Counted from the first letter of the stretch, positions 1,958 to 36,786 are shown. The stretch: DNA of 36,790 nt from Nanobdellota archaeon (GCA_020430425.1 JAGQJW010000002.1:1-36790), one strand, 5' to 3'. Program-made: numbers and translations. Notes: generated by a model from the sequence alone, not told the origin.

Positions 1958-2395
1958 ATGAAAAAAGCGGTGTTGTTTGGTGGATTGATTCTTCTTTCTC
2001 TTCTTCTCTCTGCTTGTGGAGGGCAAACACTCTATATGTGTTCTGATGGAACTCCCGGGGGAGGTCAGATTCCTGATGTGTCAAAGAGTCTTACCTATTT
2101 CTGTCCAGACGGAAAAGAGACCGATGACTTTACTCGCTGCACTTTTGTCAAAGAAATCACTATCACGCAAAAGGATGCCGAGACCAAAAGCATCAACTTC
2201 GTAAATGGCTATGTGCGGGCAAGCGGATGGTCAGGAACGCTCATCAATGTCTATCCAGAAGAAGGAGATTTCTATGGTCAGCTTGTCATCTCCAAGAATG
2301 GAGAGCAATCCTATGAAACCCTGGTCAAAGTTGATGGGGTAAAAGGCTCAGTCTCCTGCTTTCAAAATTGCTTATATACGACTCAAATAAGCTGA
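1958..2395 (+). CDS. Small secreted lipoprotein-like protein (lipobox LLSAC), function unknown
   Basis: ORF 1790..2395 trimmed to the ATG at 1958, because its first 56 codons overlap the RNase P RNA. The N-terminus MKKAVLFGGLILLSLLLSACGG is a lipoprotein-type signal with a lipobox Cys. The mature part is Cys-containing and about 120 aa. Confidence 0.68.
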   Translation: MKKAVLFGGLILLSLLLSACGGQTLYMCSDGTPGGGQIPDVSKSLTYFCPDGKETDDFTRCTFVKEITITQKDAETKSINFVNGYVRASGWSGTLINVYPEEGDFYGQLVISKNGEQSYETLVKVDGVKGSVSCFQNCLYTTQIS

Positions 2396-12454: not shown

Positions 12455-12473
12455 TCTCTTGTTCTTAAGGCCT

Positions 12474-17887: not shown

Positions 17888-17990
17888 TTTACCTCGACAC
17901 TTCCTTTTCTTCTTCTAATTAAAACAGCGTATATAAATATTTCCGTCACCAATAAACCACTCTAGAGGCACTACAGAGGCTAAGCGAAGG

Positions 17991-18000
17991 TTTTAAATAT
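17991..18000 (+). promoter_or_regulatory. TATA box (TTTTAAATAT) about 27 nt upstream of the ATG at 18022
   Basis: Motif and spacing. Confidence 0.45.
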
Positions 18001-18021
18001 CGCTAAAACGCCGTATGGCTT

Positions 18022-19428: not shown

Positions 19429-20054
19429 TTATGACAAACAAAATCCCTAAAGACAGCCTTGGAAGTCCCTTTAGCAAGTGGGAGCTGACTGTCAAAGAGA
19501 CCTTTGCTCTTGATGGACTGTATAAGAGGATCCATGATTTTCTCGTTGAGGAACAATGGAAAGATCTCAATGGTGGCGATGTCGATAGCGGTGGCGACGA
19601 GTTTGAAGACTACTATTTCCAGCGAACGCAAGGAGATATGAAGTTCCACGTCATCTGGTGGAGAGCAACCAAGAGACCAAAGATACACGGGAACAAATAC
19701 GTACAATTCTATCTCATCCTTGATATGGTAACTCAGGCACTCAAGGATAAGGAAGTCATCCACAATGGACAGAAAATAGGTCTTCATAATGGAGAGTTCA
19801 AGGTAAATGCCCAGCTCTTCCTTGTTGATGAGGATCCAAACAGTCCCGGGAATGCACAATGGAATGAACACCCGATACTCTCCTTTGTCAAGAAAAGATT
19901 CTGGAACCGAGAAAACAAGGGAGTCATGGGTGCCTGCAAAGGCGAGCTTATGAAATTCTCGAACGATCTCTATGAACTTATTCAACGGTATACGGGTGTA
20001 CTTCCAGAAGGACCAGTCAGAGATTTCTCTCCTGTCAAAGGAACACACAACTAA
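19425..20054 (+). CDS. Hypothetical soluble protein (209 aa), translationally coupled to the membrane protein
   Basis: ATGA start/stop overlap with 18022..19428. No motif recognised. Confidence 0.6.
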   Translation: MIMTNKIPKDSLGSPFSKWELTVKETFALDGLYKRIHDFLVEEQWKDLNGGDVDSGGDEFEDYYFQRTQGDMKFHVIWWRATKRPKIHGNKYVQFYLILDMVTQALKDKEVIHNGQKIGLHNGEFKVNAQLFLVDEDPNSPGNAQWNEHPILSFVKKRFWNRENKGVMGACKGELMKFSNDLYELIQRYTGVLPEGPVRDFSPVKGTHN

Positions 20055-20530
20055 TCTTCTTTGAGAATATCAACAACCTCAGCTCGGTTGATCTCTACCA
20101 ATGCTTGAGGTGATACAAGAATAGAATCCTCCAGAGTGCCTGCAGAAAAAATCACCTGATCAATGTCCAGAAGACTCCTATCAACGAATACTCTGATATT
20201 CCAGAGAGAACCAAAGGGAGGTACGCTTCCAACCACGCAATCGCTTAAGGAAAGCACTTCTTGGGGGTGGGCAAGAGAAACATTCTTTTCACCAAGAATC
20301 TTTTTGAGTTTCTTTAGAGAGATTCTTTGATGTGCTGGAACAACAGCCTGAAAAAAAGCTCCTGATTTTGTCTGTAAAACAATCGCTTTTGCACCGTGCT
20401 CGTGAGTTGTCCCTCGAAGGAGCGAAGCTCCTTTACTGTCCCGAGGAATCGTATCATGAGTCAAGTGCTTGTAGGAAATATTCTCGTCATCAAACAATTT
20501 CTTGATCTGTTCTAATGTTGCCTTACTCAT
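20051..20530 (-). CDS. YbaK/ProX-type aminoacyl-tRNA deacylase (trans-editing domain protein)
   Basis: The 159-aa sequence has KAIVLQTKSGAFFQAVVPAHQRISLKKLKKILGEKNVSLAHPQEV...VVGSVPPFG, which matches the YbaK/ProRS-associated editing domain pattern. Confidence 0.78.
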   Translation of the reverse strand: MSKATLEQIKKLFDDENISYKHLTHDTIPRDSKGASLLRGTTHEHGAKAIVLQTKSGAFFQAVVPAHQRISLKKLKKILGEKNVSLAHPQEVLSLSDCVVGSVPPFGSLWNIRVFVDRSLLDIDQVIFSAGTLEDSILVSPQALVEINRAEVVDILKED

Positions 20531-20531
20531 C

Positions 20532-22529
20532 TTAGTTCTGTTCCTGTTTTATGATCAGGACTTGATAGGGTGCGAGCCTTTGAAAACAGATCTCATGAGA
20601 GAACAGTGCGAAGTTCGTACTCTTCTGTGTGGAGAACTGTTCTGGAAATGCATACTGTCCAGTCCCTCGAAACTGTTCTCTATCACTGTCAAACACCAGA
20701 GAATAAGAACCTCGTTTCTGAACTCCGATAGAGTACTGGTGCAGCTCTCTTGAAGAAAGATTGACCAAGATATAGAACACATCCTTTGATCCTTGTGTCC
20801 TATCTTCTCGTCTGATGACCAGTACTTTATTGGTCTCATCGACATTCACATATTTTCGATAAATAGTGTTCTCAGGAAAGAATGCTGGATGACGAGTCAA
20901 TAAGTTAACCTGCTTCTTATACTCAATTACCTTTTTGGTATCCTCGTTTGTTCTCAACAGACCCCACTGGATGCTACTGTCGTGCTCAAAGGTTCCTTCC
21001 TGCAAGAGAAACGACTGCAAGAGATCAAGGAATCGACCCTCACAACCAAAAGCGATAATGGCTTCCATGACCTTGATTTTTCCGATCGCATGAAAAGCAA
21101 GATTAGGATTCTTGAGGATGAGCGCATCATAGGCATAGGAACCAGTCGCTCGACCATGCATGAGACCTGCTGCTGCATCGTGATTATGGAAGTCAGCAAT
21201 AGTACTATTGCTTCGGCCCCACTCTTTCTCATCACGAATGTGTTCAAAACGCCAGACTGAAGTCTCTTCAACAGCTTTAGGCATGAATTCCTTATGGAAA
21301 TAATACGTCAAGCGGCTGCTGTTGTAAGCAGTTGCCCCTAAAGCACGAGGCTCAGTTGCTAGGGGTGCAACCAACATCTTTGCGTTATCACCATAGAAAT
21401 AATGAGACTCGAGATGGATGAGTGCAAAAGGGTTGTGTGTGTAAATCTGCTCGATAAGCTCTCGCATGAACGGACGGCCGAATTCTCGATCAGGCCCTTG
21501 ACCCGCATCACCATATCGTAAGATACCATCGACATTATCAATACGAAAACCATCAATACCATATCGTATCAGATAATGCAGGGCACTTTCTGTAAGGTAT
21601 CGTCGCACATTACCATCACCATACCGAAAACGCATCGTGCCCCAAGGAGTCTGTTCTTGAAGGTAGGTCTCTTCATGATACTTGGTGATCCATTTGTGCA
21701 AACCAACATCTTCGCCATTCATTCCAAACAGTCGATAATCTTTGTGAGGGCAGTGGCTAAGAATAAGATCGCAGATGACTGCAATCCCTAACTCGTGGCA
21801 TTTGTCTATCATGCGAGCAAAGGAATCAGGATCCCCCCAATTTTTCTGCAAGGCAAAAGAATAAGGGACCAGATATCGAAACTTCCAGTTGTCTCCATCA
21901 ATGGATTGTGCAACGGGCAAGAACTGAATGGTGTTGAAGCCTAACTCTTTTACCTTCTCCAACACCCCACAAGTGGCGATGTAGGTAAACAAGTCCTGAT
22001 CACTCTCGGCAGTAGTCTTTGCACTTTCATCAAACTCAAACCATCGAGAGACAAGACCTGGAAGATCTGTCTGCAGGAGCGCTGTTGACTGACGAAGGGT
22101 ATTCGGTCCTGCAAACCGCTTCTTATACGTACTTGGATCATCGAAATCCCAGAAGATACAATTACCATCCTTATCAAAGAAAGTCGCTGCAGGATCACGA
22201 AGCAACTCGTTCCTTGTCAGAAAAAGATACGGATCCTTGTGCTTGAGAGCGGTTGTTCTCAACTCATGAAAACCAGACTCGTCCTGACAGGTGAACTTGA
22301 ATGAATCAAGATCATTTTCCCCCCACTCATTGAACGGACCAACCAAAAAAATATCATCAAAACTGTTTGAATAGACGCGAAAATCAACTTCCTTTGCCTG
22401 TCCTTTATCATCTCTTGACTTGACCTGATATCCAAACTCCTGCTGGTAAACCTTCTTTCTTTTCAAGTCCTGTCGGTACAGCAAGGATTCCCATTGATAG
22501 AAGATTGAACGTAAAGGGATTGCTGCCAT
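20532..22529 (-). CDS. GH13-family alpha-glucan-active enzyme with an N-terminal CBM48-like module (branching/debranching/amylase-like; specificity unresolved)
   Basis: The CBM48-like segment is VDFRVYSNSFDDIFLVGPFNEWGEN. GH13 regions are I AVICDLILSHCPH, II GIDGFRIDNVDGI (nucleophile Asp), III LIHLESHYF and IV IADFHNHDAAAG. Confidence 0.82.
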   Translation of the reverse strand: MAAIPLRSIFYQWESLLYRQDLKRKKVYQQEFGYQVKSRDDKGQAKEVDFRVYSNSFDDIFLVGPFNEWGENDLDSFKFTCQDESGFHELRTTALKHKDPYLFLTRNELLRDPAATFFDKDGNCIFWDFDDPSTYKKRFAGPNTLRQSTALLQTDLPGLVSRWFEFDESAKTTAESDQDLFTYIATCGVLEKVKELGFNTIQFLPVAQSIDGDNWKFRYLVPYSFALQKNWGDPDSFARMIDKCHELGIAVICDLILSHCPHKDYRLFGMNGEDVGLHKWITKYHEETYLQEQTPWGTMRFRYGDGNVRRYLTESALHYLIRYGIDGFRIDNVDGILRYGDAGQGPDREFGRPFMRELIEQIYTHNPFALIHLESHYFYGDNAKMLVAPLATEPRALGATAYNSSRLTYYFHKEFMPKAVEETSVWRFEHIRDEKEWGRSNSTIADFHNHDAAAGLMHGRATGSYAYDALILKNPNLAFHAIGKIKVMEAIIAFGCEGRFLDLLQSFLLQEGTFEHDSSIQWGLLRTNEDTKKVIEYKKQVNLLTRHPAFFPENTIYRKYVNVDETNKVLVIRREDRTQGSKDVFYILVNLSSRELHQYSIGVQKRGSYSLVFDSDREQFRGTGQYAFPEQFSTQKSTNFALFSHEICFQRLAPYQVLIIKQEQN

Positions 22530-22969: not shown

Positions 22970-24646
22970 TTATTTTTTCCTTGTTGAAATGGCAAGCTCA
23001 TCAAGCTGTGCTTGACTTACCGAACTTGGAGAATCCATCATCAGATCGACAGCATCCTTGTTTTTTGGAAAAGCAATAACCTCTCTGATATTCTCTGCTC
23101 CTGCAAGAAGCATGACCATCCTGTCAAGACCAAAAGCAAGACCTCCGTGAGGTGGTGCTCCATACTCAAACGCACCTAGCAAGAAACCGAACTTCTCTTT
23201 CTGTTCCTGTTCGGTTATGCCTAAGGCATTGAACACTTCCACCTGCAGATCTCTCTGATGGATCCTGATGCTTCCACCACCAAGCTCAACACCATTAAGC
23301 GTCAAATCATAGGCTTTTGATTTAGCGTGGTGAGGCTCTGTTGCAAGCAGGTGTCTATCTTCTTCTTGAGGACTGGTGAATGGGTGGTGCATCGCAACAT
23401 ATCGACTATCTTCTTCACTCCATTCCATCAAGGGGAAATCAGTGATCCACAAGAAACTCCATTTCTCTTTGATCAGCTGCAGCTCTTTTCCCAGATGCAG
23501 TCGAACAGCACCAAGTGCTGCGGGAACAACGTGAATAGAATCTGCAACAAAGAAGAGATACTCATTATCCTTTAGCTCGACAGGAACATCCTTGAGGAAC
23601 TTTGCAATACCGCCAGCAAGATTTCCTTCTTCTTTTTTCACCCAAGCAAGACCTTTTGCACCGTAGACTTTAGCGATATCCGTCAGCTTATCGATCTGTT
23701 TTCTGGAAAAGTCACCAGCGACCTTCAAGCAACGAACAACTTCTGCTTCTTTGAAGATAGAAAAATCAGTTGCCTTTGCCCATTTCGTAACCTCTTCAAT
23801 CTCAAGACCAAAACGAACATCAGGCTTATCACTTCCAAACCGGAGCATGGCTTCGTCATACTTCATTCTCGCAAAAGGAATCGATAATTCGACACCGATG
23901 GTCTCTTTCCAGACCCGTGCAATCATCCCTTCCATAACTGAGTAGATATCCTCCTCTTGAACATAGGACATCTCCAGATCAATCTGAGTGAATTCTGGTT
24001 GCCTATCGGCTCGCAAATCCTCGTCACGAAAACATTTCACGATCTGCAAGTATCGATCAAGACCACCGACCTGAAAGAGCTGCTTGAAAATCTGTGGACT
24101 CTGCGGAAGCGCATAGAATTTCCCTTGGTTCACCCTGCTTGGTACCAGATAGTCTCTTGCACCTTCAGGAGTGCTCTTTCCAAGAATAGGCGTTTCCATC
24201 TCAAGGAACCCCAGTTCATCAAAATATTTTCGAACAGACATGGTCGCCTTGTGACGAAGAATAAGATTCTTTTGCATGTGTGAGGAACGAAGATCAAGAT
24301 ATCTATACTTGAGTCTTGTCTCTTCAGTTGCATTCTCATCAAGCGGAAGCGGTGCTGACCTGTTAAGAAGAATAACCTCTTTTGCCTGCACTTCAATCTC
24401 TCCTGTCTCCAGTTTCTTATTTGCTTCTGGTTTCTTGACTACTGTTCCTTTCACTTGGATGACTGACTCCTTTGAAGCGTCGATAGGTTTGTTTGAAGTC
24501 ACTTGCGTGATTCCGTATCTATCTCGAATATCAATAAAGGTGACTGCACCATGTGTTCGGATACTCTGTACCCAACCTGCAAGGGTCACTTCCTGACCTT
24601 CATTTGTCGCTCTCAACTCTCCACACGTATGACTTCGATACATCAC
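22970..24646 (-). CDS. aspS: Aspartyl-tRNA synthetase, bacterial type (with GAD-like insertion domain)
   Basis: OB-fold N-terminus (VTLAGWVQSIRTHGAVTFIDIRDRYG), motif 2 FRDEDLRADRQPEFTQIDLEMSY, GSDKPDVRFGLE followed by an insertion of about 130 aa, then WITDFPLMEW, HHPFTSP and motif 3 GGLAFGLDRMVMLLAG. The 558-aa length fits the bacterial type. Confidence 0.93.
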   Translation of the reverse strand: MMYRSHTCGELRATNEGQEVTLAGWVQSIRTHGAVTFIDIRDRYGITQVTSNKPIDASKESVIQVKGTVVKKPEANKKLETGEIEVQAKEVILLNRSAPLPLDENATEETRLKYRYLDLRSSHMQKNLILRHKATMSVRKYFDELGFLEMETPILGKSTPEGARDYLVPSRVNQGKFYALPQSPQIFKQLFQVGGLDRYLQIVKCFRDEDLRADRQPEFTQIDLEMSYVQEEDIYSVMEGMIARVWKETIGVELSIPFARMKYDEAMLRFGSDKPDVRFGLEIEEVTKWAKATDFSIFKEAEVVRCLKVAGDFSRKQIDKLTDIAKVYGAKGLAWVKKEEGNLAGGIAKFLKDVPVELKDNEYLFFVADSIHVVPAALGAVRLHLGKELQLIKEKWSFLWITDFPLMEWSEEDSRYVAMHHPFTSPQEEDRHLLATEPHHAKSKAYDLTLNGVELGGGSIRIHQRDLQVEVFNALGITEQEQKEKFGFLLGAFEYGAPPHGGLAFGLDRMVMLLAGAENIREVIAFPKNKDAVDLMMDSPSSVSQAQLDELAISTRKK

Positions 24647-24655
24647 ATTTCACCC

Positions 24656-25216
24656 TTACTTCTCGATGATAAACACTCGTTGCATAACATCTCCTTGTCG
24701 GAGATTCTCTACCACGTCCATTCCTTGTACGACCCGGCCAAAGATGGCATAGGAACCGTCAAGATGAGGTGCGGCCTCTAAAGTAATATAGAACTGACTT
24801 GATGCGCTATTAGGATCGGAACTTCGTGCCATAGCAAGTACGCCCTTGTCGTGCTTGAGACCTTCAACAATCTCCAAAGGAATGGTAGTACCACTTCCTC
24901 CTGTTCCATCACCATCAGGATCCCCTCCTTGAATGACAAAGCCTGGAACGTATCGGTGAAATGTCAGTCCATCATAGAAACCACTCCTGACCAGATCAAG
25001 AAAGTTCTTTGCGGTGACCGGCACCTGTTCTTCATAAATCTCTGCGATAATGACGCCTTTATTCGTATCTATCTGCACTAATTGTTTTCCCATAGTATCA
25101 TCTCGAACAGTATTTGCTGTTATCTGGCTTGAAAAATCTGATTGATGAGCAATCAAAACAGACAGCACTACAATGATTGCCGCCACGGTCAAGATAAAGA
25201 TTCCTTTATTTTCCAT
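24656..25216 (-). CDS. Cyclophilin-type peptidyl-prolyl cis-trans isomerase with N-terminal signal/anchor
   Basis: FHRYVPGFVIQGGDP...GVLAMARSSDPNSASSQFYITL...HLDGSYAIFGRVVQGMDVV. The N-terminal hydrophobic helix is IFILTVAAIIVVLSVLIA. Confidence 0.9.
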   Translation of the reverse strand: MENKGIFILTVAAIIVVLSVLIAHQSDFSSQITANTVRDDTMGKQLVQIDTNKGVIIAEIYEEQVPVTAKNFLDLVRSGFYDGLTFHRYVPGFVIQGGDPDGDGTGGSGTTIPLEIVEGLKHDKGVLAMARSSDPNSASSQFYITLEAAPHLDGSYAIFGRVVQGMDVVENLRQGDVMQRVFIIEK

Positions 25217-25909: not shown

Positions 25910-26488
25910 ATGGCAGCAACAGTTCTTGGCGGTACCATTGAGTTCATGGCTCAGCTAGGAATCTATGATATCATCCTGCCTTTTCTTCTGGTCTTCACCC
26001 TGATGTTTGCCACTCTTGAAAAGACTAAACTGCTTGGTGTGGAAATCATAGTAGACAAATCGGGGAAAGAACATTCCTATACTAGAAAGAACCTCAACAG
26101 CATCATCGCGTTCACCACGGCTTTTTTTGTCATCGCTTCAGCACAGCTGGTGCGTATCATCAGTGAAGTCATCGCAAACACCATGATTCTTCTTGTCACC
26201 GGACTCAGTTTCATGCTAGCTGTCGGACTTTCTCACTCTGGACAAGATGAATTCAAGCTCTCAAAGCTCGGCAAGGGCTGGGAGATAGGATTCTGGATAG
26301 CAAACCTCGTTGGAATCATTCTCATCTTTCTCAACGCTATCGGTTGGCTTGACAAGATCTATCAGTTCGTCACTCAAGGACTCAAGAATCCTCAAACCCT
26401 CTCCATCTTCCTCATCTTGGTTTTCGTGGGACTCATGGTCTGGATCACTTCAAGCCCTAAGAACAAACCAGAACGAAGCGATGATTAG
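25910..26488 (+). CDS. Multi-pass membrane protein, paralog 1 of 3 (unknown family)
   Basis: N-terminal motif LGIYDIILPFLLVFTLMFATLEKTKLLG, four to five TM helices and a basic/acidic C-terminal tail. Confidence 0.7.
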   Translation: MAATVLGGTIEFMAQLGIYDIILPFLLVFTLMFATLEKTKLLGVEIIVDKSGKEHSYTRKNLNSIIAFTTAFFVIASAQLVRIISEVIANTMILLVTGLSFMLAVGLSHSGQDEFKLSKLGKGWEIGFWIANLVGIILIFLNAIGWLDKIYQFVTQGLKNPQTLSIFLILVFVGLMVWITSSPKNKPERSDD

Positions 26489-26593
26489 ACTTTTTCTTGA
26501 GAATCAGCTTCTGTTTATAAGGTAATTTACCGAAAGGTTTTAAAAGGAAGACACCAATAAAGAACCTAAAGGAACTCGTGTGAGGCGATACAT

Positions 26594-27184
26594 ATGTATG
26601 GTTTAGGCTTTGATAATATGATTTTTACTCTTCAACAATGGGGCGTCATAGATGTAATTCTGCCCTTCATCCTGATCTTCACCATTGTCTTTGCGGTGAT
26701 GGAAAAGACCAAGATCCTTGGCAGTGAAGACTATCAGGTGCGAAAATACGCTGCAATCATCTCAATGGTGGTGGCTTTTGCAGTTGTCGTTCCGCATATC
26801 ACCGGTGCATACTACTATGGATTTGATGCTGTACAGGTCATCAACAATGCACTTCCGCAAGTGGGTCTTCTTCTTGTGGCAATCGTTATGATGCTTTTGA
26901 CTATCGGACTCTGGACGGGTAAACGTGCAGACGGCTCAAAAGGAATCGGTACTTGGTTCACTATGGCATCCGTTGTGGTCGTTATCGGAATCTTCATCGC
27001 AAGCATGGGCTGGTGGCAAGTGCCTCAGTGGCTCTGGTTCTCATTGAACAGCGAACTCATTGCTTTGGTCGTTGCAATCCTCGTGTTTGGAATCATCATC
27101 AATTTCATCGCACAAGGAGAGAAGAAACCCGACAAGGACAAGAAGCCTCTTTCAAAAGACATCCAAGAGTTTCTTCAGGGATGA
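26594..27184 (+). CDS. Multi-pass membrane protein, paralog 2 of 3 (unknown family)
   Basis: N-terminal motif WGVIDVILPFILIFTIVFAVMEKTKILG is nearly identical in pattern to paralog 1. Same topology, with a Lys-rich tail. Confidence 0.7.
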   Translation: MYGLGFDNMIFTLQQWGVIDVILPFILIFTIVFAVMEKTKILGSEDYQVRKYAAIISMVVAFAVVVPHITGAYYYGFDAVQVINNALPQVGLLLVAIVMMLLTIGLWTGKRADGSKGIGTWFTMASVVVVIGIFIASMGWWQVPQWLWFSLNSELIALVVAILVFGIIINFIAQGEKKPDKDKKPLSKDIQEFLQG

Positions 27185-27224
27185 TTCTTTCCCTTTTTTT
27201 ATTTTATAATGGTTGAGGAATAGT

Positions 27225-27884
27225 ATGGCAACATTTTTGGACGTATCACTATTTGGCTACTTCGGTTCTATCTTCATTTTCCTATTCGTCTTTGCGATTG
27301 TCTGGGGAATCCTTACTTGGGCAAAAATCTTCAAGGGCGTACCAGGAGAGAAAGGAATCTATGGACTAGTTGCACTTTCAATAGGCCTTATCGTCATGAT
27401 CTCAAGCGACACGTCAACACTCATCGCGACCATGGCACCTTGGTTTGCCGTTCTCATGATCTTTGTCTTTCTGGTCTTTCTCATCTTTCGGATGTTCTCA
27501 GGAGACGATCACAGCCAACTATCAAGTGCCATAAAATCGCCAGGAGTCTACTGGACACTCATCGTCCTTTCAGTCATCATCTTGCTTGCAAGCCTCTCTT
27601 CAACCTTTGGACAGCGACTGCTTGATGACGGTCAAGGAACAACTACCAGCGTCAATATAGACTCTAGAAATGAAGTGACTAATCCGCAGGAAATTACTGA
27701 TGGAACAACATCTACGACCACGACGACAACAGATGCTGTATCTGGCTCGACGGCAACCAATAGCTTTAGCGATAATGTCCTCTCAACGATCACCCATCCA
27801 AAAGTCCTAGGACTCATCATGATGATGTTCATATCCTTTTTTGCAATCCTTCTGATTGCACGATCACAGGATCCAAACGTATAA
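27225..27884 (+). CDS. Multi-pass membrane protein, divergent paralog 3 of 3, with a Thr-rich extracytoplasmic linker
   Basis: ORF 27213 (TTG) trimmed to the ATG at 27225, which has a GAGG Shine-Dalgarno sequence 7 nt upstream. FGYFGSIFIFLFVFAIVWGILTWAKIFKG aligns with the paralog motif. A low-complexity stretch TDGTTSTTTTTTDAVSGSTATNS precedes the last TM helix. Confidence 0.68.
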   Translation: MATFLDVSLFGYFGSIFIFLFVFAIVWGILTWAKIFKGVPGEKGIYGLVALSIGLIVMISSDTSTLIATMAPWFAVLMIFVFLVFLIFRMFSGDDHSQLSSAIKSPGVYWTLIVLSVIILLASLSSTFGQRLLDDGQGTTTSVNIDSRNEVTNPQEITDGTTSTTTTTTDAVSGSTATNSFSDNVLSTITHPKVLGLIMMMFISFFAILLIARSQDPNV

Positions 27885-27888
27885 TAAA

Positions 27889-28329
27889 ATGGCAGACCCT
27901 TTACCTATCAACCAACTCCCGAACATGGGGCAAGCACCTTCGATGTCAGGAGGCTTTCAGTCATCTGGAGGTCAACCTCTGCAGACGTTCTCTGATCCTC
28001 ACACTACTGCAACCAATGAAGAACTCATTGAAGCGATCATCGATGAAAAATGGAACGAGCTCCTTAAGGACGTCAACAAGATCATCGAGTGGAAAAATCA
28101 GACGGAGACAAGAGTCACCACGATCGAACAAGAGATCAAGGATATGAAAGACCAGTTCGATAAGCTGCATCAAGCACTTCTTGGAAAGATCGGCGAGTAT
28201 GATAAACACATTCTTGATATCGGAACAGAAATACAGTCCATGGAAAAGGTATTCGCTAAAGTGCTTCCTGTCTTCACCCAAAATGTCTCAGAGCTTTCTA
28301 GAATAACTGATGATCTCAAACAACGATAG
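27889..28329 (+). CDS. Coiled-coil protein with a disordered Gly/Gln/Ser/Pro-rich N-terminus (unknown function)
   Basis: ORF 27856 (TTG) overlaps the upstream gene, so the ATG at 27889 is preferred; it lies 4 nt after the upstream stop. Heptad-like helical sequence runs from EELIEAIIDEKWNELLKDVNKIIEWKNQ onward. Confidence 0.62.
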   Translation: MADPLPINQLPNMGQAPSMSGGFQSSGGQPLQTFSDPHTTATNEELIEAIIDEKWNELLKDVNKIIEWKNQTETRVTTIEQEIKDMKDQFDKLHQALLGKIGEYDKHILDIGTEIQSMEKVFAKVLPVFTQNVSELSRITDDLKQR

Positions 28330-28331
28330 GA

Positions 28332-28811
28332 TCATTCATGATGCTGTTCGTGCACTTCTTTTCCCTGATCTTTTTGATGGAACCTTTTTCTTAAGAAATC
28401 ATTCACTTCCTTTCTCGTTACAAAATCAACCGGCTGCCAATACTCAACATATTTCTGAATGACCTTGAGCTCATTTCTTGATGCGAAATTCTCAATCTCA
28501 TCACTAAGCATGCTGACTTTCTCAAAAATATCCCTCATCTTCAACTTGATCTCAGCGATATCATCATTGATGATGCGCAAATCATCATAATGGTTTTTTT
28601 CCACCTCAACAATATTATGTTCTGTTGTCTGGGATTTTTTTCGCAGAGTGCCGTACCGTTCCTCAAGAATCTTTAATCTTGTTGCAACGTTATTGAGCTG
28701 AGAACCTGCAAGAGCCATCTCTTTTGCATCTTCTTTTGTCCCTTCATTCTTATGTCTGGCAACATGCTCTTTTGGATCAGGTTGATTAGGAAACAATTCA
28801 GGCTCGACCAT
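28332..28811 (-). CDS. Coiled-coil protein with a disordered charged N-terminus (unknown function)
   Basis: LNNVATRLKILEERYGTLRKK...IAEIKLKMRDIFEKVSMLSDEIENFASRNELKVIQKYVEYWQPVDFVTRKEV. A TATA box lies about 28 nt upstream of the ATG. Confidence 0.62.
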   Translation of the reverse strand: MVEPELFPNQPDPKEHVARHKNEGTKEDAKEMALAGSQLNNVATRLKILEERYGTLRKKSQTTEHNIVEVEKNHYDDLRIINDDIAEIKLKMRDIFEKVSMLSDEIENFASRNELKVIQKYVEYWQPVDFVTRKEVNDFLRKRFHQKDQGKEVHEQHHE

Positions 28812-28833
28812 ATGCTTTCTCTAAGAACTCTTC

Positions 28834-28845
28834 TCATATAAATGA
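28834..28845 (-). promoter_or_regulatory. TATA box (minus strand CATTTATATGAG) about 28 nt upstream of the start at 28811
   Basis: Motif and spacing. Confidence 0.45.
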
Positions 28846-28957
28846 ATTGTTTTTACTAAAAAGTAGCCAAACAACCCCTTCTTTAGCATGGTGTGCGCCT
28901 TTTATGCAAAGACATATAAACGCTCTTTGCCCTTATTCTCATAAAAGGGTGAGGTAA

Positions 28958-31252
28958 GTGCCGGATACTAAACTCAAGTATGATGTAATTAGAGAGGGGG
29001 ATGACGTAGTTCTTGTCGTTGACTATAGCAATCGAGGTAGGATTCCCTCTATCGAAGACGATGAAATCACCATGTCCGAGACCATGACCATGCTCTTGGA
29101 GAACCAGACGGCAACAAGAATCATCTTCTCACAAAAACACGATTATGAATACGATTTCTCTCAAGTCACACTTATCTTAGAGCTAGCAAGGTTGTATGCG
29201 AAACTGGTGCGAAATAAAGAACTTTTCAGTTATCCGGCGCTCGCCCAGAACATCGCCGCTTCCTTGCTAGCATCTAAGTATAACGAACTGCATAACATTC
29301 TGTTTGCAGAACTCAAGAAGGATCCTCTTGCCTGCTATGTGCTGCTACGTCGGATCAGAAGAAGAGAACAGATCCAGCTTGACAAAGAAATCGATGAAGA
29401 CCTGATTGCAAGCCTCAAACATTATGTCGGATTGCTTGATTACATCCTCCAGCTTCTTGAAGGAACAAAACTGCTCACCGTTGCAAGACCTTACCTTGAA
29501 GGATATCAAGTGGGAACCCGAGATGTCTACAGAAGAATCTTCACTCCCCTCATCAAGCCCGATTTCATGTTCACCAAACTCATGGCAGCATACCCGAAGA
29601 ATGCCATCGAACTAGAGAACTATACTCTTGAAGGCGACATCGAGATCATTGTCTTTGAACTGCCCGATACCGTCCAATATCTGTATCATGTCATGCCACC
29701 CGAGTTCAAGCTCAACGAGGATCAGTACGAACTTTTAGATACGGCAAGAAAAATTCTTAGCGAACACACTCCGGATCAAGATGAATTCACTGATCCTGCA
29801 AGGATGAGAGATGTCTTCTACCATGTGGGAAAGGATCTGCTTGTTGAACTCTCAGAATATCGAGAGATGAATCTCAAGGATGAAGAAGTGGAGAATCTTG
29901 CAAAGATACTCGTACGTTACACTGTTGGCTTTGGTCTGATAGAAGTGCTTCTTGCCGATGAGAATATGCAGGATATTTCCGTGAACAGCCCTGCAGGAGA
30001 ATTACCCATCTTCATAGTCCATGCAGACTATGATGACTGCATCACCAACATCTATCCGACACCAAGCGATGCAGAAAGCTGGGCATCAAAGCTTCGGCTC
30101 ATCAGTGGACGACCATTGGATGAGGCAAACCCTATCCTTGACACTGAACTGGAACTTCCTGGGGCAAGCATTCGAACCTCAACCATCACAAAACCGCTTG
30201 ATCCAACAGGCATCGCGTTCTCCTTTCGACGACACCGAGACAAGCCATGGACGCTTCCGCTTTTCCTCAAGTATCAGATGATCACTCCCCTTGCTGCTGG
30301 TCTGCTTTCTTTTCTCATTGACGGAACGAGAAGCATGCTCATCTGCGGAACGAGAAGCAGCGGAAAAAGCAGTTTTCTCTCAAGCCTCCTTGTTGAGATC
30401 ATGAGACGACACCGAATCATTACCATCGAAGACACTTTAGAACTACCAACAAAGTCACTTCGACAACTAGGTTTCAACATACAACCGATGAAAGTAGCAA
30501 GCGCTCTTGCCAAAAGCGGTGATGAGTTCAGCGCGGAAGATGGCATTCGAAGCACGTTACGATTAGGAGACTCTGCTCTGATTGTAGGAGAGGTTCGAAG
30601 CGGAGAAGCAAAAGCACTCTATGAAGCAATGAGAGTAGGTGCAGCTGCAAATGTAGTTGCAGGAACAATCCACGGAGACAGCCCTTTTGGAGTATTCGAT
30701 CGACTGGTGAATGATATCGGTATTCCAAAAACATCCTTTAAGGCAACAGACATCATCGTCATCGCAAACCCTATCAAATCAGCAGATGGATTGCACAAGC
30801 TTCGACGAGTGCTCCAGATTACTGAGGTAAGAAAAGACTGGCAGGATGATCCTTCAAGTGAACACGGTTTTGTCGACCTGATGAAATACAATGCAGCAAC
30901 AGACCAATTAGAGCCTACTCCTGAGCTGCTCAATGGAGAGAGCGACATCCTCAAAGATATTGCCTCAAAAGTAAAAGAATATACGGGCAATTGGGATGCT
31001 ATGTGGGAGAACATCATCCTTCGAGGAAAGCTCAAAGAGCGGATCCTTGAGCTCAGTGAGAAGGAGAAGATGCCTGAACTTCTTGAAGCAGCTTTTGTTA
31101 TCCTCGCAAATGACATGTTCCACAAAACGGTGGAACGGGTCATCAAACGATCTGGAAAGACGGATAACGATCTCATCTATTTTGAATGGGATGACTGGTT
31201 GACTAAAGAAATAAAACGAATGAAACTGAAAAATGGACGAGAAAGCATATGA
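28958..31252 (+). CDS. Type II/IV secretion / type IV filament assembly ATPase (FlaI/GspE/VirB11 superfamily), oversized at 764 aa
   Basis: GTG start with a GGTGAGG Shine-Dalgarno sequence. YTVGFGLIEVLLADENMQDISVNSP, Walker A GTRSSGKS (nt 30347-30370), Asp box IITIEDTLEL, Walker B ALIVGEVRSGEA and His box GTIHGDSP. There is an N-terminal extension of about 300 aa and a C-terminal extension of about 130 aa. Confidence 0.88.
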   Translation: MPDTKLKYDVIREGDDVVLVVDYSNRGRIPSIEDDEITMSETMTMLLENQTATRIIFSQKHDYEYDFSQVTLILELARLYAKLVRNKELFSYPALAQNIAASLLASKYNELHNILFAELKKDPLACYVLLRRIRRREQIQLDKEIDEDLIASLKHYVGLLDYILQLLEGTKLLTVARPYLEGYQVGTRDVYRRIFTPLIKPDFMFTKLMAAYPKNAIELENYTLEGDIEIIVFELPDTVQYLYHVMPPEFKLNEDQYELLDTARKILSEHTPDQDEFTDPARMRDVFYHVGKDLLVELSEYREMNLKDEEVENLAKILVRYTVGFGLIEVLLADENMQDISVNSPAGELPIFIVHADYDDCITNIYPTPSDAESWASKLRLISGRPLDEANPILDTELELPGASIRTSTITKPLDPTGIAFSFRRHRDKPWTLPLFLKYQMITPLAAGLLSFLIDGTRSMLICGTRSSGKSSFLSSLLVEIMRRHRIITIEDTLELPTKSLRQLGFNIQPMKVASALAKSGDEFSAEDGIRSTLRLGDSALIVGEVRSGEAKALYEAMRVGAAANVVAGTIHGDSPFGVFDRLVNDIGIPKTSFKATDIIVIANPIKSADGLHKLRRVLQITEVRKDWQDDPSSEHGFVDLMKYNAATDQLEPTPELLNGESDILKDIASKVKEYTGNWDAMWENIILRGKLKERILELSEKEKMPELLEAAFVILANDMFHKTVERVIKRSGKTDNDLIYFEWDDWLTKEIKRMKLKNGRESI

Positions 31253-33452
31253 TCAGGTAGCATCTCTTTTCAAGGAGCGATTAGAGGATGAGCTTGCAGG
31301 AAAGAAACCTCAAGAAGAAACTGAGATAGAGTCTCGTGCCTATGATGAGTTCAAACAGCAATACCTCCCCAAGCATCTGAGCTTCTATGAGAAGATCTGT
31401 CAGTTCTCTGAAAAGACCTTACCAATGAAACCGCAGGAAAAAGATGTTCCTAAACTGCAAGAAGCTATCAATACCTGTCACCTCAACACGTCTCCAACTG
31501 GAATCTATAGTTCTTCTTTTGTCATCCCTTTAGGCATAGTCCTATTTGCGATAGTCTTCTTTTTCATGCTTCCTGTCCTTTTTGGAGGATTTCCCAACAT
31601 GTTCTTTATCATCTTCAGCCTCCTTGTAGCAGTGGGTCTGATGATCCCCCTACAGAAGCTTCCTTTTATCCTCGCAAACAGATGGCGACTCAAGGCAAGC
31701 AACCAGATGGTCCTTGCTATCTTCTACATGGTCACCTATATGCGACACACGTCAAACATAGAAAATGCGATCAACTTTGCAGCAGAACATCTTGCTCCAC
31801 CTCTCTCTTTAGATCTGCGAAAAGTCATGTGGGACGTAGAGACCCAGACCTATGACTCCATGAAAAACTCTCTTGATGCGTATCTACTTCGATGGAAAGA
31901 TTATAATATGGAGTTTGTCGAGAGCATCCACCTCATCCAATCAAGCCTTATGGAATCATCGAATGACCGCCGACTCAATAGCCTTGACAAGGCACTCACC
32001 GTCATCCTTGATGAGACTTTTGAGAAGATGCTGCACTATGCCCATGGACTCAAGGGACCGCTTACTACCTTGAATATGCTTGGAGTAGTACTTCCGATCC
32101 TTACTCTAGTCATCTTGCCACTGGTAGTGAGTTTCATGGATGGCTTTCGATGGTACCACCTCTTTGCCATCTACAATATTGCATTACCTGCTCTTGTCTA
32201 CTCATTAGGTATGAGCATCCTCACCACAAGACCTGGTGGCTCTGGACAGGAAGACATCACCAAGAAAAACCCCGAGCTCAAAAAATATCAAAACGTCGTA
32301 GTGACTGTGGGACAAAAGGAGCAGTACATCAAACCGATATATCTCTCACTCGCATTAGCTATTTTTCTTCTTTTCATCGGGTTCCTTCCTCTTCTCTGGT
32401 CAGCAGTAGGCTTTCCTGATTACGGTATCGTCAAGGATTCTGGAAGGGTCCGGATCATGGATATTGAAACTGCTAAGGCCGATGGTTGGACCGTACAGTA
32501 TTACTTTCTGGGATATCGAGAACGAGATGCTACAGGAGAACTCGTAGGTCCTTTTGGTCTTGGAGCAATGCTCTTGAGTCTTATGATCCCTCTAGGGATA
32601 GGATACAGTACAGGACTCTACTATAAGTATCGTACCCAGCATATCGTAAAGGTAAGAGAACAGGCAAAGAAACTGGAGCTGGAATTCTCAGGAGCACTTT
32701 TTCAGCTAGGAAACCGGATCGGTGATGGCATCCCTGCTGAAGCAGCCTTTGGAAGAGTAGCACAGCTCATGCCAGACACGGTCTCTGGAAAATTCTTTAA
32801 CTTAGTCCATGTAAATGTCACTAACTTAGGTATGAGTGTGGAGCAAGCGATCTTTGACAAGGATAAAGGTGCACTCAAGTATTACCCTTCTGACCTCATC
32901 GAGAGCAGCATGAAAGTACTTGTCGAGTCAAGCAAGAAAGGGCCTTTGGTTGCAAGTCAAGCTCTCATCAATGTCTCAGAATATCTTAAGCAGATGCATC
33001 GAGTAGACGAACGGCTCAAGGATCTTCTTGGAGATGTCATCTCTGGAATGAAGAGTCAGGTGTTGTTCTTAACTCCCGTCATTTCAGGAATAGTAGTAGG
33101 AATCACCAGCATGATCACTAAAATATTGGGAACACTAGGAGATAAAGTCAATTCACTAGGAAGCGCTGCAGGAACTGCAGGTGCAGGAGGTGGGGTGCTT
33201 CAGCTCTTTGGTGTAGGAATCCCTTCCTATCATTTTCAGATTGTAGTTGGACTCTATGTCGTACAACTATCCTATATCCTTACCGTCATCGCAAATGGCA
33301 TAGAAAACGGACCGGATAGAATAGGAGAAGAAACTAGTCTAGGAATGCAGATGACCAAATCGATTCTCATCTACACCGGCATCTCTTTTGCAGTGATTCT
33401 CATCTTCAACTTAGTGGCGACTACCATCCTGACAAATGTATCTGGACTATAG
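31233..33452 (+). CDS. FlaJ/TadC/PilC-like polytopic membrane platform protein (two T2SSF-like cytoplasmic domains), oversized at 739 aa
   Basis: Overlaps the ATPase gene by 20 nt. Two helical cytoplasmic modules (NIENAINFAAEHLAPPLSLDLRKVMWDVE... and ELEFSGALFQLGNRIGDGIPAEAAFGRVAQLMPD...) are each flanked by TM helices, as in FlaJ/TadB-C. Confidence 0.68.
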   Translation: MDEKAYDQVASLFKERLEDELAGKKPQEETEIESRAYDEFKQQYLPKHLSFYEKICQFSEKTLPMKPQEKDVPKLQEAINTCHLNTSPTGIYSSSFVIPLGIVLFAIVFFFMLPVLFGGFPNMFFIIFSLLVAVGLMIPLQKLPFILANRWRLKASNQMVLAIFYMVTYMRHTSNIENAINFAAEHLAPPLSLDLRKVMWDVETQTYDSMKNSLDAYLLRWKDYNMEFVESIHLIQSSLMESSNDRRLNSLDKALTVILDETFEKMLHYAHGLKGPLTTLNMLGVVLPILTLVILPLVVSFMDGFRWYHLFAIYNIALPALVYSLGMSILTTRPGGSGQEDITKKNPELKKYQNVVVTVGQKEQYIKPIYLSLALAIFLLFIGFLPLLWSAVGFPDYGIVKDSGRVRIMDIETAKADGWTVQYYFLGYRERDATGELVGPFGLGAMLLSLMIPLGIGYSTGLYYKYRTQHIVKVREQAKKLELEFSGALFQLGNRIGDGIPAEAAFGRVAQLMPDTVSGKFFNLVHVNVTNLGMSVEQAIFDKDKGALKYYPSDLIESSMKVLVESSKKGPLVASQALINVSEYLKQMHRVDERLKDLLGDVISGMKSQVLFLTPVISGIVVGITSMITKILGTLGDKVNSLGSAAGTAGAGGGVLQLFGVGIPSYHFQIVVGLYVVQLSYILTVIANGIENGPDRIGEETSLGMQMTKSILIYTGISFAVILIFNLVATTILTNVSGL

Positions 33453-33481
33453 AACTATTCGATAAAGAAAGTGGCTGCCAA

Positions 33482-36400
33482 TCAAGTAGTCTGGTCTGCG
33501 GGTGGCTGATACGCATCTGAACCCGCAACTTTCTGGACAATAGACGGGTAGGTATGTTCCAGATGCGCATTAAGAGTTTCGTTGGTTCCTTTCTCCTGCA
33601 ATAGTCTTGAAACAAAGGTCTCAAGCTCCTTCTCATCAAGTGCCGACAATGAATTCTTGAAATCACTAACGCGATTAGCAGAATAGAAGCTCATCACTCT
33701 CTCGACATTCCTGTCTTTGATCTTGTCAAAGAATCTTTCATAATATCTGATGACTATATCCTCATAAGGACGATCATTCAAGTAACCAACAGACTCCTGA
33801 TAACTCGCCCATCGTTGACCATTTGGATCAAAATAGCTGATAGTCCTTGAGGGTGACTGTAGGCTGGTGGTTCTGATAAGCGGCAATCGATCAACCACTT
33901 CCTTGAAGAAAGGAAGATTGATGATCAGTCCTCTTTCTGACTCATACTTCTTCGCCTCAGTCTGGATATTATTAATGGTTGTGACCGCATCCAACTGGAT
34001 GGCAGGAAGATCCCTGTTTGCTGTCCTGAACTGTTCATACTTAGTATATTCAGCGTTGTAGAAAGGCATGCTTTCAGCCCTATCCGGTTCGTGGAAGGCG
34101 ATGAATCTTTTTGGCGGAAATAATCTTCTAGATATTATCATATTATTGTCATCATCAGACCGTCGATAGTGTACTATTCCTGCTAGATTAATGTCTGCTA
34201 TATCTTCTACCCACTGATATTTTTTCGAATACAAATTTCCATAGAGCATCCTTCGAAAAGTCTCGTTCTCTTCTGAATGAAACGCATCATAAATTACTTG
34301 AGCAGATTCTCTTAGAGTATCAACTGTTGATTCGTATTTTTGAAGGTTCTTGCTCAGTAAAGATAACCGTTCATTCTTCTTTTTCTGCTTTCGTTCTTCT
34401 TCTCGATATTTCTTCTCAGCTGCTTTCCATTCCTTGTTCTTTTTCTTGAGATTCTTCAAGCTTTCCTTACTTAGACCCCAACTCTCATAATGTCCTCTCT
34501 CTTCAACAGGAATCAAATCTTTATATTTCTCATATCGGTCAGCGTCGTTCTTGATCTTTCGATCCTCGCTGATCTGCTCCATCTTGTTTCTCATATGGGA
34601 TGCCATCTTAGAAGAAAACTCATATGTCTTGACAACTGGCCATCTTCCTAATCTGTATAGTCCAACGGAACCACCAACCACTCCCCTGAACGCGTAGTTT
34701 CCTGCCTTGGCAATTCCATTTAAGGTCATCATGGTTCCTTGTCCAATCTTTCTGCCAGCATACTGAAGACCAGATATGGTCTTGGCTCTGACAGGAAGCG
34801 TCTTTTCGTACAGCATATTCATCTTATCTAACGAGTAACTTGCAACCTTTCCTGAAGCCTTCACTAGCTTATATCCTGCATATGCAGGCAAGAAGAGAGC
34901 TCCACCTACCAAGCCAAGACCGACCAACAATGGTGTTGCAACCGTCATGCCGATCCCTGAAACGACCTTATCTATGGTGATGGATGCATTGGCTGTTCGC
35001 TCGCCAAAGAACTGCCTATAAAAATCTCTGACCAGATCGAACTTGGAATTGAATTCCATCCGTTTCTGATATCTCTTTTTGCTGGTCAAATCCTTTTTCC
35101 TTTTTCTTTCATTTAGCCTTTGTTCCTGTAAATATTTTTTTCTGCTCTTTTCCAGATCCAAAATATACTCATCCAAATCCTTGAATTGAACACCAGTTCC
35201 CATCCGGTCAAGGAACCCGTTCTTTTTGAGAACAATCTTTCCATCAAACTCATCGAACTGCCTTTTCTTGGTTGTGGTCAAAACCAGTTGGTTTTCCCCT
35301 ATCTCTTCATAAGAAACAAATGATCCTGTTACGCTCTCAAACAGCGGTAATGATTCGATTTTCTTGATTGCTCTTGCTCTTGACTCCTTAAAGGACTCTG
35401 CCCACTTATCCATCCGGTTCGTAAGGCTCTCATCATAGTCCTGAAAGATCCTTTTCGTGGTCATTTTCATCTGAAGCCATTCTTCTTCTGGAACAGTAAT
35501 GTATGATTGGAGAATATTCCTGAGCGCGTTCTCTTTTCTGACTAATGATTCTGAAGGGACTTTCTTATTGAGGCTACGCATGTATTCATCACTGATATCA
35601 AGGATGCTTTTATTCAACTCGAGAGCAAGATCCTGTGCTGCAAGGTGCTGATAGATATTTTCCTGAAGCTTTCTTCTTCCCGCCATCCCGACATGACCTA
35701 AAGGCGTATCAATAATGAGTGATAATCGATGTATCTTTGAAAAAGCGTCGTAGTTCGCAAAATCATTCTCAAAACGAACCCCTGCTCTAGTGGCCACGAA
35801 CTGAGGTCCTCTCTCAGTATTAAAGAACAATTTTGCCCTGTATGAATCGGTCTGTATAGTTCTATCGAACTCAAGATAGCTCTTTTTTCTTGCACCGTGA
35901 TTTGTTCCATTGACCGTAAAAGGAATAATACTTTTCTGTGCTCTTGATGTCAAGTAATAATATTCTCTTGATCTGGCCTTACTGAATAGTTTCTCTCTTT
36001 GCTTCCTGAATTTCTTGTTAACAGTGATGGTTGTACCTTCAGTGATGGAAACCTTATCATCAGATGAAAAATTAACCACTCTGTTTCCGAATTTCAGCTT
36101 GTTCCTCTGTTCTTGACGAGAAAGAGATTTAGCATCAACTACTTTTGCGACATAATGGATTGACTTATTGTTCTTGACCGATTCGATATGCACTTCATCT
36201 GCTCCCGATTCAATGGCAGTAGAAACTCCTAGTGCCAAAGGCCTAAACCGCTGATAGAATTCGTTATCTTCTGGGACTCCTATGATGGTTGAGAGCAGCT
36301 CGTCAATCTCCGGTCCAGAAAATCCTTTACCATCACTTTTCATAGTCATCTTGTTCTTTGAGAACCTGACCTTAATCTCTTTAGGATTCGTATTATAAAG

Positions 36401-36538
36401 AGCTGAAAACAATTCGGTGACATACTCGGTGTTATCGCTAAAGAATGATGTTGAGACCTTTTCTTGTAGCTTCTGCTCGTTTACTGAGTAGAGGAAACCT
36501 TCTTTCCTGACAATCTTCTCTAATTTTTTAGCTGCCAT
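33482..36538 (-). CDS. Large (1018 aa) protein: weak GHKL-like (Hsp90/MutL/MORC-like) N-terminal region, central hydrophobic/Gly-rich segment, Lys/Glu-rich coiled coils and a C-terminal globular region
   Basis: An uninterrupted 3-kb ORF. By-eye GHKL-like elements are TELFSALYNTN, KSDGKGFSGPEIDELL (compare DNGIGM..eel), LALGVSTAIESGADEVHIES (compare GvGfySaflvAd.V.v.s) and EGTTITVNKKF (compare GTtv.v..LF). The hydrophobic segment VVSGIGMTVATPLLVGLGLVGGALFLPAYAGY spans residues 525-557. Basic coiled-coil tracts lie around residues 465-495 and 695-730. Confidence 0.75.
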   Translation of the reverse strand: MAAKKLEKIVRKEGFLYSVNEQKLQEKVSTSFFSDNTEYVTELFSALYNTNPKEIKVRFSKNKMTMKSDGKGFSGPEIDELLSTIIGVPEDNEFYQRFRPLALGVSTAIESGADEVHIESVKNNKSIHYVAKVVDAKSLSRQEQRNKLKFGNRVVNFSSDDKVSITEGTTITVNKKFRKQREKLFSKARSREYYYLTSRAQKSIIPFTVNGTNHGARKKSYLEFDRTIQTDSYRAKLFFNTERGPQFVATRAGVRFENDFANYDAFSKIHRLSLIIDTPLGHVGMAGRRKLQENIYQHLAAQDLALELNKSILDISDEYMRSLNKKVPSESLVRKENALRNILQSYITVPEEEWLQMKMTTKRIFQDYDESLTNRMDKWAESFKESRARAIKKIESLPLFESVTGSFVSYEEIGENQLVLTTTKKRQFDEFDGKIVLKKNGFLDRMGTGVQFKDLDEYILDLEKSRKKYLQEQRLNERKRKKDLTSKKRYQKRMEFNSKFDLVRDFYRQFFGERTANASITIDKVVSGIGMTVATPLLVGLGLVGGALFLPAYAGYKLVKASGKVASYSLDKMNMLYEKTLPVRAKTISGLQYAGRKIGQGTMMTLNGIAKAGNYAFRGVVGGSVGLYRLGRWPVVKTYEFSSKMASHMRNKMEQISEDRKIKNDADRYEKYKDLIPVEERGHYESWGLSKESLKNLKKKNKEWKAAEKKYREEERKQKKKNERLSLLSKNLQKYESTVDTLRESAQVIYDAFHSEENETFRRMLYGNLYSKKYQWVEDIADINLAGIVHYRRSDDDNNMIISRRLFPPKRFIAFHEPDRAESMPFYNAEYTKYEQFRTANRDLPAIQLDAVTTINNIQTEAKKYESERGLIINLPFFKEVVDRLPLIRTTSLQSPSRTISYFDPNGQRWASYQESVGYLNDRPYEDIVIRYYERFFDKIKDRNVERVMSFYSANRVSDFKNSLSALDEKELETFVSRLLQEKGTNETLNAHLEHTYPSIVQKVAGSDAYQPPADQTT

Positions 36539-36786
36539 TAAGATGATCCTCCTTCATGTACATAGGTCTTGTTGAGAAAAGAACTCATTTTCGGAACGAT
36601 CTTATTGTTGTAAGCAGAAATGTATGTAGTGACTGCAGTCAAGATTCCTGCTACTGCAAGATCGCCATAATCAGGATCGGTTGCCGTCTCCAACGCCTTT
36701 CTTACAAAGGAACTGTGTATGTTCAAAGAAAGAACTTCTTTACTTGAGAACGTATCAAAGATCCGCTCTTTTGTGGAACGTTTCAT
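36538..36786 (-). CDS. Hypothetical small protein (82 aa), translationally coupled to the 1018-aa gene
   Basis: Its TAA stop shares one nucleotide with the downstream ATG (TAATG). It has a hydrophobic stretch LAVAGILTAVTTYISAY. The region upstream is outside the window. Confidence 0.5.
   Translation of the reverse strand: MKRSTKERIFDTFSSKEVLSLNIHSSFVRKALETATDPDYGDLAVAGILTAVTTYISAYNNKIVPKMSSFLNKTYVHEGGSS

Follow-up and report, generated by a model that had tools for sequence, protein, structure and literature searches.

What is encoded by the run of membrane-protein, coiled-coil and secretion-ATPase genes near one end of a 36,790-nt stretch of DNA from a Nanobdellota archaeon (GCA_020430425.1, JAGQJW010000002.1:1-36790; the whole stretch is called the window in what follows), and do these genes form one unit? 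An earlier note on this DNA had proposed that nine consecutive genes (g1 to g9, 25910-36786) make up a novel surface-apparatus locus, and all nine open reading frames (ORFs) were found at the positions claimed. The core of that idea holds for g1-g7 (25910-33452), the order of which is conserved in related genomes, but g8 and g9 do not belong to it, and 'filament-associated' is a label that we infer for the module. We read g1-g7 as a vertically inherited module that is specific to Woesearchaeota/Nanoarchaeota and derived from type IV filament (TFF) machinery, with the subunits it acts on encoded elsewhere, and give this reading a probability of roughly 0.58. Woesearchaeota belong to the most widespread DPANN archaea, and the literature searched describes no cultured representative. 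A module that occurs in hundreds of species, with its ATPase and platform conserved above aspartyl-tRNA synthetase (AspRS), offers a concrete candidate, open to testing, for a surface or membrane machine that defines the lineage.

The unity of g1-g7 was assessed from gene neighborhoods in two samples of related loci. The ATPase-anchored sample comprises the best 80 of 325 matched stretches encoding a g6 relative in a species-representative genome collection; synteny was counted in the 55 loci that extend 4.5 kb or more beyond the start of the ATPase gene on its upstream side. The triplet-anchored sample is an independent set of 80 loci from JGI metagenomes, 27 of them with enough flank, and was collected with an alignment of g1 only, the mixed triplet alignment being too divergent. 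On the ATPase anchor 42 of the 55 loci carry g1-g5 together with g7, four carry some of these genes and nine carry g7 alone. Across the 80 genome loci g7 adjoins g6 in 79, g5 is present in 63 and orthologues of g1 in 48, and wherever the triplet occurs in related loci g1, g2 and g3 are contiguous. In the metagenomes g4, g5 and g6 lie near the triplet in 23 of 27 loci. One metagenomic sub-clade departs from this pattern in that g7 is not adjacent to g6 (7 of 18 loci), while triplet, coiled-coil genes and ATPase gene are still together. In two loci (L002 and L005) the g1-g5 block has been relocated and inverted to the other side of g6-g7, and the flanks downstream of the module are entirely variable among relatives. 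Throughout Woesearchaeota the homologues of triplet, coiled-coil proteins, ATPase and platform are found in synteny, not scattered. The link between these sub-clusters, which according to the earlier note rested on adjacency only, is still drawn from synteny, but it now extends beyond one genome to many Woesearchaeota loci.

The module also evolves slowly. Compared with the same distant genomes, identity amounts to 60.5% for g6, 59.4% for the conserved part of g4 and 51.7% for g7, as against 48.2% for AspRS; g1, g2, g3 and g5 range from 32 to 43% and lie below AspRS. Among the matches listed, all 120 homologues of g7 are unnamed or 'hypothetical', and so are the 120 homologues of the triplet, bar two with non-descriptive JGI names. 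Where a source organism is named, the g6, g7 and triplet matches listed come nearly all from Woesearchaeota, Nanoarchaeota or Nanobdellota, one being labeled 'Euryarchaeota archaeon'.

The ATPase gene g6 (28958-31252, plus strand, 764 aa) encodes a secretion ATPase of the T2SSE/FlaI/TadA/GspE superfamily with intact catalytic motifs. Pfam T2SSE matches it with 58.9 bits (cut-off 24.9), and Walker A (GTRSSGKSS), Asp box (TIEDTLE), Walker B (LIVGEVRSGEA) and His box (AGTIHGDSP) are kept in 80 of 80 aligned orthologues. The best NCBIfam models, FlaI (NF058587) with 118.4 bits at a cut-off of 550 and TadA (TIGR03819) with 110.2 bits at a cut-off of 373, are both sub-threshold. Closest among solved structures are afGspE (PDB 2oap, 5.4e-26), CpaF (5e-22) and FlaI (4.5e-14). 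The best 80 of the 325 relatives match over their full length with 58-79% identity, nearly all of them labeled Woesearchaeota, Nanoarchaeota or Nanobdellota or carrying a placeholder name. With about 250 aa more than the solved archaeal relatives of 511-513 aa, g6 is indeed as long as the description 'oversized' had implied; roughly 224-280 aa at the N-terminus and a helical extension of about 110 aa at the C-terminus lie outside the match. Extra terminal domains are, however, already known in archaeal type IV filament systems, where they typify the ATPases and differ between subsystems.

The following gene, g7 (31233-33452, plus strand, 739 aa), starts 20 nt before the end of g6 and encodes a polytopic membrane protein with about nine hydrophobic segments according to hydropathy. 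No family was found for it by sequence, neither in Pfam and NCBIfam at E-values up to 1 nor in the PDB by phmmer, and a profile of 56 orthologues did not match the PDB either. Identification as FlaJ or TadC by sequence was ruled out, as all sequence-level searches were negative or insignificant and the fold search alone gave a match. The AlphaFold model, built from 66 sequences (pLDDT 82.3, pTM 0.78), shows helical bundles alternating with transmembrane segments, a helical stretch of about 95 aa at the N-terminus and a beta-rich insert at about 355-440. Foldseek superposes it on the cytoplasmic helical-bundle domains of EpsF (2vmb/3c1q) and OutF (5nbg) with a probability of 1.00, TM-scores of 0.69-0.76 and a root-mean-square deviation of about 2.9 Å across some 120 aa; ranked first is the PilC chain in the model of the type IVa pilus machine (3jc8). 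Compared with these proteins g7 is about twice the size, has its nine or so hydrophobic segments and shows no detectable sequence similarity. The label 'platform' follows from predicted fold and gene position, not from sequence. The model supports the assignment of g7 as a highly divergent GspF/PilC-type platform-like membrane protein; of the FlaJ-like platform proposed before, the GspF/PilC cytoplasmic fold is recovered, but a T2SSF or FlaJ sequence match is absent. Surveys of type IV filaments relying on T2SSF sequence models would miss the module.

Upstream of the ATPase gene, g1 (25910-26488, 192 aa), g2 (26594-27184, 196 aa) and g3 (27213-27884, 223 aa) follow one another on the plus strand. 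They constitute one new family of five-helix membrane proteins, which bears out the proposed paralogy of three proteins with four to five transmembrane segments. Comparison of g1 with g2 gave a blastp E-value of 1e-13 and an hhalign probability of 99.9; g3 reached 98.7 with g1 and 98.4 with g2, and all three cross-match as hidden Markov models (HMMs). Each is a small polytopic protein of about five helices, and the motif DV.LPFLL.FT..FA.LEKTK..G is common to them. In g2 the motif reads DV(L/I)LPF(I/L)LIFT..FA..(E/Q)KTKILG and the protein ends in a charged cytoplasmic tail. The most divergent paralogue, g3, has a conserved HPKVLG motif, and its last helix is preceded by a variable Ser/Thr-rich loop. 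Neither Pfam nor NCBIfam matched the single sequences, no Pfam family recurred among 39 members, and g1 had no match in PADLOC. The AlphaFold model of g1 (pLDDT 80.8) consists of an N-terminal amphipathic helix, a first transmembrane helix, a beta hairpin (44-58) and four further helices; Foldseek found no structural neighbor for it in PDB or BFVD.

Between triplet and ATPase gene lie g4 (27889-28329, plus strand, 146 aa from its ATG, with an alternative TTG start at 27856) and g5 (28332-28811, minus strand, 159 aa), which are predicted to be two mutually unrelated cytoplasmic coiled-coil proteins. The proposed pair of coiled-coil proteins with disordered heads is confirmed insofar as low-complexity heads and heptad periodicity are seen in both. 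In g4 a head rich in P, Q, G and S precedes the conserved coiled coil, which makes up the C-terminal 100 aa or so, with heptad periodicity over residues 50-108; a family scan gave sub-threshold matches to coiled-coil families only. In g5 a low-complexity head is followed by a heptad-periodic tail with a conserved C-terminal W.P..FVTR motif. Paralogy of the two was rejected (hhalign probability 2.5). The 146-aa form of g4 is also called in the closest relatives, whereas most relatives have a g4 of about 212 aa with an extra N-terminal helical domain, encoded on the opposite strand (37 loci, as against 10 on the strand used in the window). Relative to such loci (for example L015:8790-9464) g4 of the window's clade (27856-28329) is inverted, and its N-terminal domain (about 50 aa) has been lost. 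The consensus of the missing domain is ..QG..NNQIIQTLQRDGYS..QIFEAMNQA, for which only faint UBA- or helix-turn-helix-like matches were obtained.

The genes g1-g4 run in one direction, g4 and g5 converge with 2 nt between them, and a 146-nt spacer (28812-28957) separates the divergent genes g5 and g6. TATA-like boxes can be read on both strands of this spacer: ACATATAAAC about 36-45 nt upstream of the GTG start of g6, and, on the minus strand, TTTATAT roughly 25 nt before the ATG of g5. Both are candidate boxes.

How does this gene set compare with known systems? Membership in the type IV filament superfamily is indicated by the ATPase and the predicted platform fold, while the scores for the archaellum and Tad equivalog models failed to reach their cut-offs. 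With the archaellum the module has in common the ATPase superfamily, FlaI being the best NCBIfam model for g6, a polytopic platform gene after the ATPase gene, and coiled-coil proteins encoded alongside, which offers a possible analogy of g4/g5 to the scaffold proteins ArlX or ArlC/D/E. It differs in the low score of g6 (118 bits against 550) and its roughly 250 extra residues, in the lack of a FlaJ/T2SSF sequence match for g7, in the archaellins, ArlF/G and ArlH, which were not found here, and in the g1-g3 paralogues, which have no archaellum counterpart. Archaeal adhesive pili and GspE-like systems (Aap, Ups, Epd, clades 2 and 4) include the closest solved relative of g6, afGspE, but own recognizable TadC/T2SSF platforms and class III-signal pilins, both of which the module lacks in cis; pilins of such systems are in some cases encoded elsewhere (PMC4858521). 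To the Tad/Flp pilus g6 is related through CpaF (5e-22) and the TadA model (110 bits, below the cut-off of 373), whereas the module is archaeal, has a single fused platform-like protein and is without Flp pilin, TadV, RcpA and TadZ. In profile and fold searches g1-g7 did not map onto characterized accessory families of pili or archaella. Our literature searches found no description of the module, and the accessible parts of the 2016 census (PMC4858521) and of a 2026 MacSyFinder survey (bioRxiv 10.64898/2026.04.22.720090) do not describe the accessory set of g1-g7; as far as these parts of the two archaeal surveys go, the layout is unlike archaellum, Aap, Ups and Epd, in agreement with the earlier note. 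For Woesearchaeota and Pacearchaeota, lineage-specific membrane families that lack annotation have been catalogued without functional interpretation (PMC8204110). The module appears to be an undescribed variant of type IV filament machinery.

A second filament cluster in a relative shows how far g6 stands from the canonical ATPases. In locus L076 a canonical type IV filament cluster (17054-22257) is found some 2.6 kb downstream from the g7 orthologue; it contains genes for an ATPase, for two T2SSF platform proteins and for a KaiC-like ATPase, as well as a 166-aa ORF, so that both systems coexist in the lineage. The canonical ATPase scores 243 bits on the FlaI model. Since g6 is only 28% identical to it, g6 is an ancient, distinct paralogue and g6-g7 an old, separate system of paralogues. 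Automated 'FlaI' annotation in Woesearchaeota genomes may mark a g6-type paralogue and not an archaellum. FlaK is reported from most Woesearchaeota metagenome-assembled genomes (MAGs), archaellin genes are encoded, and flaB transcripts are among the most highly expressed (PMC11606122).

If g1-g7 are a TFF-derived module, the ATPase hexamer would dock under the platform and use ATP hydrolysis to move the platform within the membrane, by analogy with pili and archaella. The products of g4 and g5 might form a cytoplasmic scaffold with a role comparable to FlaX or FlaC/D/E, and g1-g3 may assemble into a hetero-oligomeric membrane collar or stator with the Ser/Thr-rich loop of g3 facing outward. 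The subunits on which the machine acts would have their genes elsewhere in the genome. Most likely these would be pilin- or archaellin-like proteins with a class III signal, as no gene for such a protein lies in cis.

Several observations weigh against this reading. Background synteny in the lineage is high: the translin gene adjoins g1 in 16 of 38 loci and AspRS lies within the flank in 25 of 38. In several close relatives a class I Trp/Tyr-tRNA synthetase gene, absent from the window, is inserted between g5 and g6 (L004:3895-5007, L007:8734-9861, L010:8124-9371), g6-g7 occur without nearby g1-g5 in 9 of 55 loci, and g6 occurs without nearby g7 in 7 of 18. The platform homology of g7 comes from predicted structure with sequence similarity to T2SSF undetected; hhalign against two genuine T2SSF proteins returned probabilities of 5.5 and 0.4, which are not significant, and an internal duplication in g7 was looked for and not detected by hhalign. 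Roles of the triplet and of the coiled-coil proteins are assigned by analogy only. Candidates for the subunits were searched with a FlaFind-like pattern in the window and within 3 kb around the module in 160 related loci, and no recurrent pilin-like candidate was found near the module. The scan of window ORFs of 100 aa or more, a set that leaves out a few nested or overlapping ones, turned up no prepilin peptidase, archaellin or FlaF/G. The absence of these genes and of FlaH, as well as of a convincing class III signal in the window, had been noted before and stands. The two window matches to the pattern are one lipoprotein-type signal and the N-terminus of a cyclophilin, and the only KaiC-like protein of the window, a stand-alone KaiC-domain ATPase (15783-16598, minus strand, 271 aa), was rejected as FlaH/ArlH with 43.6 bits at a cut-off of 215.

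The main alternative, which fits the missing pilins, is that the ATPase and platform have been exapted into a pilin-independent, ATP-driven membrane machine that builds no filament and has the triplet as its working membrane part. Such a machine may be a channel or translocon for exchange with a host, or a device for envelope biogenesis or division, core to the life of Woesearchaeales, and would explain both the conservation above an aminoacyl-tRNA synthetase and the fact that pilin genes are never found in cis in the 160 loci. Conservation of ATPase and platform beyond AspRS is unusual for surface appendages, the platform has diverged past sequence recognition, a canonical TFF cluster of the same lineage could serve the pilins, and in one sub-clade the ATPase is linked more tightly to triplet and coiled-coil genes than to the platform. 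On the other hand, every characterized T2SSE/T2SSF pair acts, to our knowledge, on class III-signal subunits, and nothing positive points to an alternative substrate. In archaea, moreover, genes for pilins often lie apart from those for ATPase and TadC (Makarova et al. 2016, PMC4858521). We consider a pilin-independent machine possible, though unlikely.

That g6-g7, g1-g3 and g4-g5 are functionally unrelated and have remained neighbors through slow change of gene order is harder still to uphold. The synteny of the housekeeping genes translin and AspRS, the tRNA synthetase gene between g5 and g6, the loci with g6-g7 alone and the presence of three separate transcription units in the window would all fit such an explanation. 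Adjacency of the sub-clusters, however, reaches 76-85% compared with 42% for translin, it outlasts relocation and inversion of a block while the downstream flanks are fully variable, and the seven families share one narrow taxonomic range without homologues elsewhere. We consider this explanation distinctly improbable. Because translin and AspRS are syntenic too and a tRNA synthetase gene can separate g5 from g6, the functional link between the sub-clusters is well supported statistically but not proven. Least probable by far is that all nine genes, including the 82-aa/1018-aa pair, build one surface apparatus. This is suggested by adjacency in this window only and by a hydrophobic segment in g8 that might associate it with the membrane, whereas no homologue of g8 or g9 occurs in the 160 related loci and the best relative of g8 sits in a different context without TFF genes. 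The two closest relatives have small, unrelated ORFs in place of g8/g9 and a RIO1 kinase gene after these, and the differing ORFs mark the site as a variable spot. Of the nine genes only g1-g7 are syntenic, and g8/g9 are a strain-specific insertion in this variable spot, unrelated to the TFF-derived module.

The inserted genes g8 (33482-36538, minus strand, 1018 aa) and g9 (36538-36786, minus strand, 82 aa) overlap by 1 nt, as expected for the operon proposed earlier, albeit not as a component of the module; g8 converges on g7. A word-indexed search of 5.8 billion proteins returned no homologue besides g8 itself. An exhaustive HMMER search yielded 16 distant relatives of 120-1240 aa, which share mainly the N-terminal 130-550 residues, and with 17 representatives among 1.8 billion proteins the family is very rare. 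In the g8 protein a hydrophobic segment lies centrally (525-555), and there are helical regions rich in Lys. Its family profile aligns with the N-terminal and middle domains of TRAP1/Hsp90 at a marginal E-value of 4e-4; the motifs aligned are DxGxG, GT.I and one resembling DS....LNLSR, with D69, G70 and G72 invariant across the family, and the N-box is not aligned. Pfam HATPase_c matches neither g8 nor nine relatives, and the relatives contain no Pfam domain. The 'GHKL-like giant' of the earlier note is plausible on the TRAP1/Hsp90 match but marginal, lacking a HATPase_c hit; g8 may be a rare protein that is anchored in the membrane and whose Hsp90-like GHKL signature is marginal. From Hsp90, TRAP1, HtpG and sacsin it differs by its long C-terminal part with the hydrophobic segment and the Lys-rich helices. 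The gene of the best relative (P0242, Woesearchaeota; L083:5830-11333) overlaps the end of a gene for a 724-aa HATPase_c_3/SACS (sacsin-like) protein; five unannotated genes precede, type IV filament genes are not found nearby, and the locus may be a distinct GHKL-pair cassette. A role of g8 in defense was rejected (no match in PADLOC), and g9 has no family match in Pfam, NCBIfam or PADLOC.

Some further observations concern the surroundings of the module. The window is archaeal, with an RNase P RNA gene at 1526-1837 (minus strand, 118 bits), and its remaining genes are mostly housekeeping. The mechanically called ORFs 1316-1648 and 1790-2395 overlap the RNase P RNA gene. Beside it an internal start in ORF 1958-2395 (plus strand) gives the lipoprotein-like signal MKKAVLFGGLILLSLLLSAC. 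The cyclophilin-type peptidyl-prolyl isomerase (24656-25216, minus strand) begins with MENKG followed by IFILTVAAIIVVLSVLIA, which fits the FlaFind-like pattern and equally an ordinary signal anchor. Among the related MAG contigs, many bear the deposited name 'uncultured Methanosarcinales archaeon', and 'Patescibacteria group bacterium' occurs once; since their gene content is Woesearchaeota-like, these labels look placeholder or mis-binned.

In L010 (JBKHAG010000001.1) 192-nt inverted repeats (9451-9642/14559-14750, 93% complementary) bracket exactly the ATPase-platform pair. They may delimit an invertible or mobile cassette or represent insertions resembling miniature inverted-repeat transposable elements; comparable repeats were not found in the window. 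Two class IIb aminoacyl-tRNA synthetase genes are present in the window (22970-24646, minus strand, and 12459-13769, plus strand); the 558-aa enzyme carries the GAD insertion domain typical of bacterial-type AspRS and the 436-aa enzyme is without it. Only in the clade closest to the window does the cyclophilin gene separate AspRS from translin, and the order AspRS-cyclophilin-translin-g1-g7 is common to the window and its two closest relatives, whose g7 is 80-82% identical.

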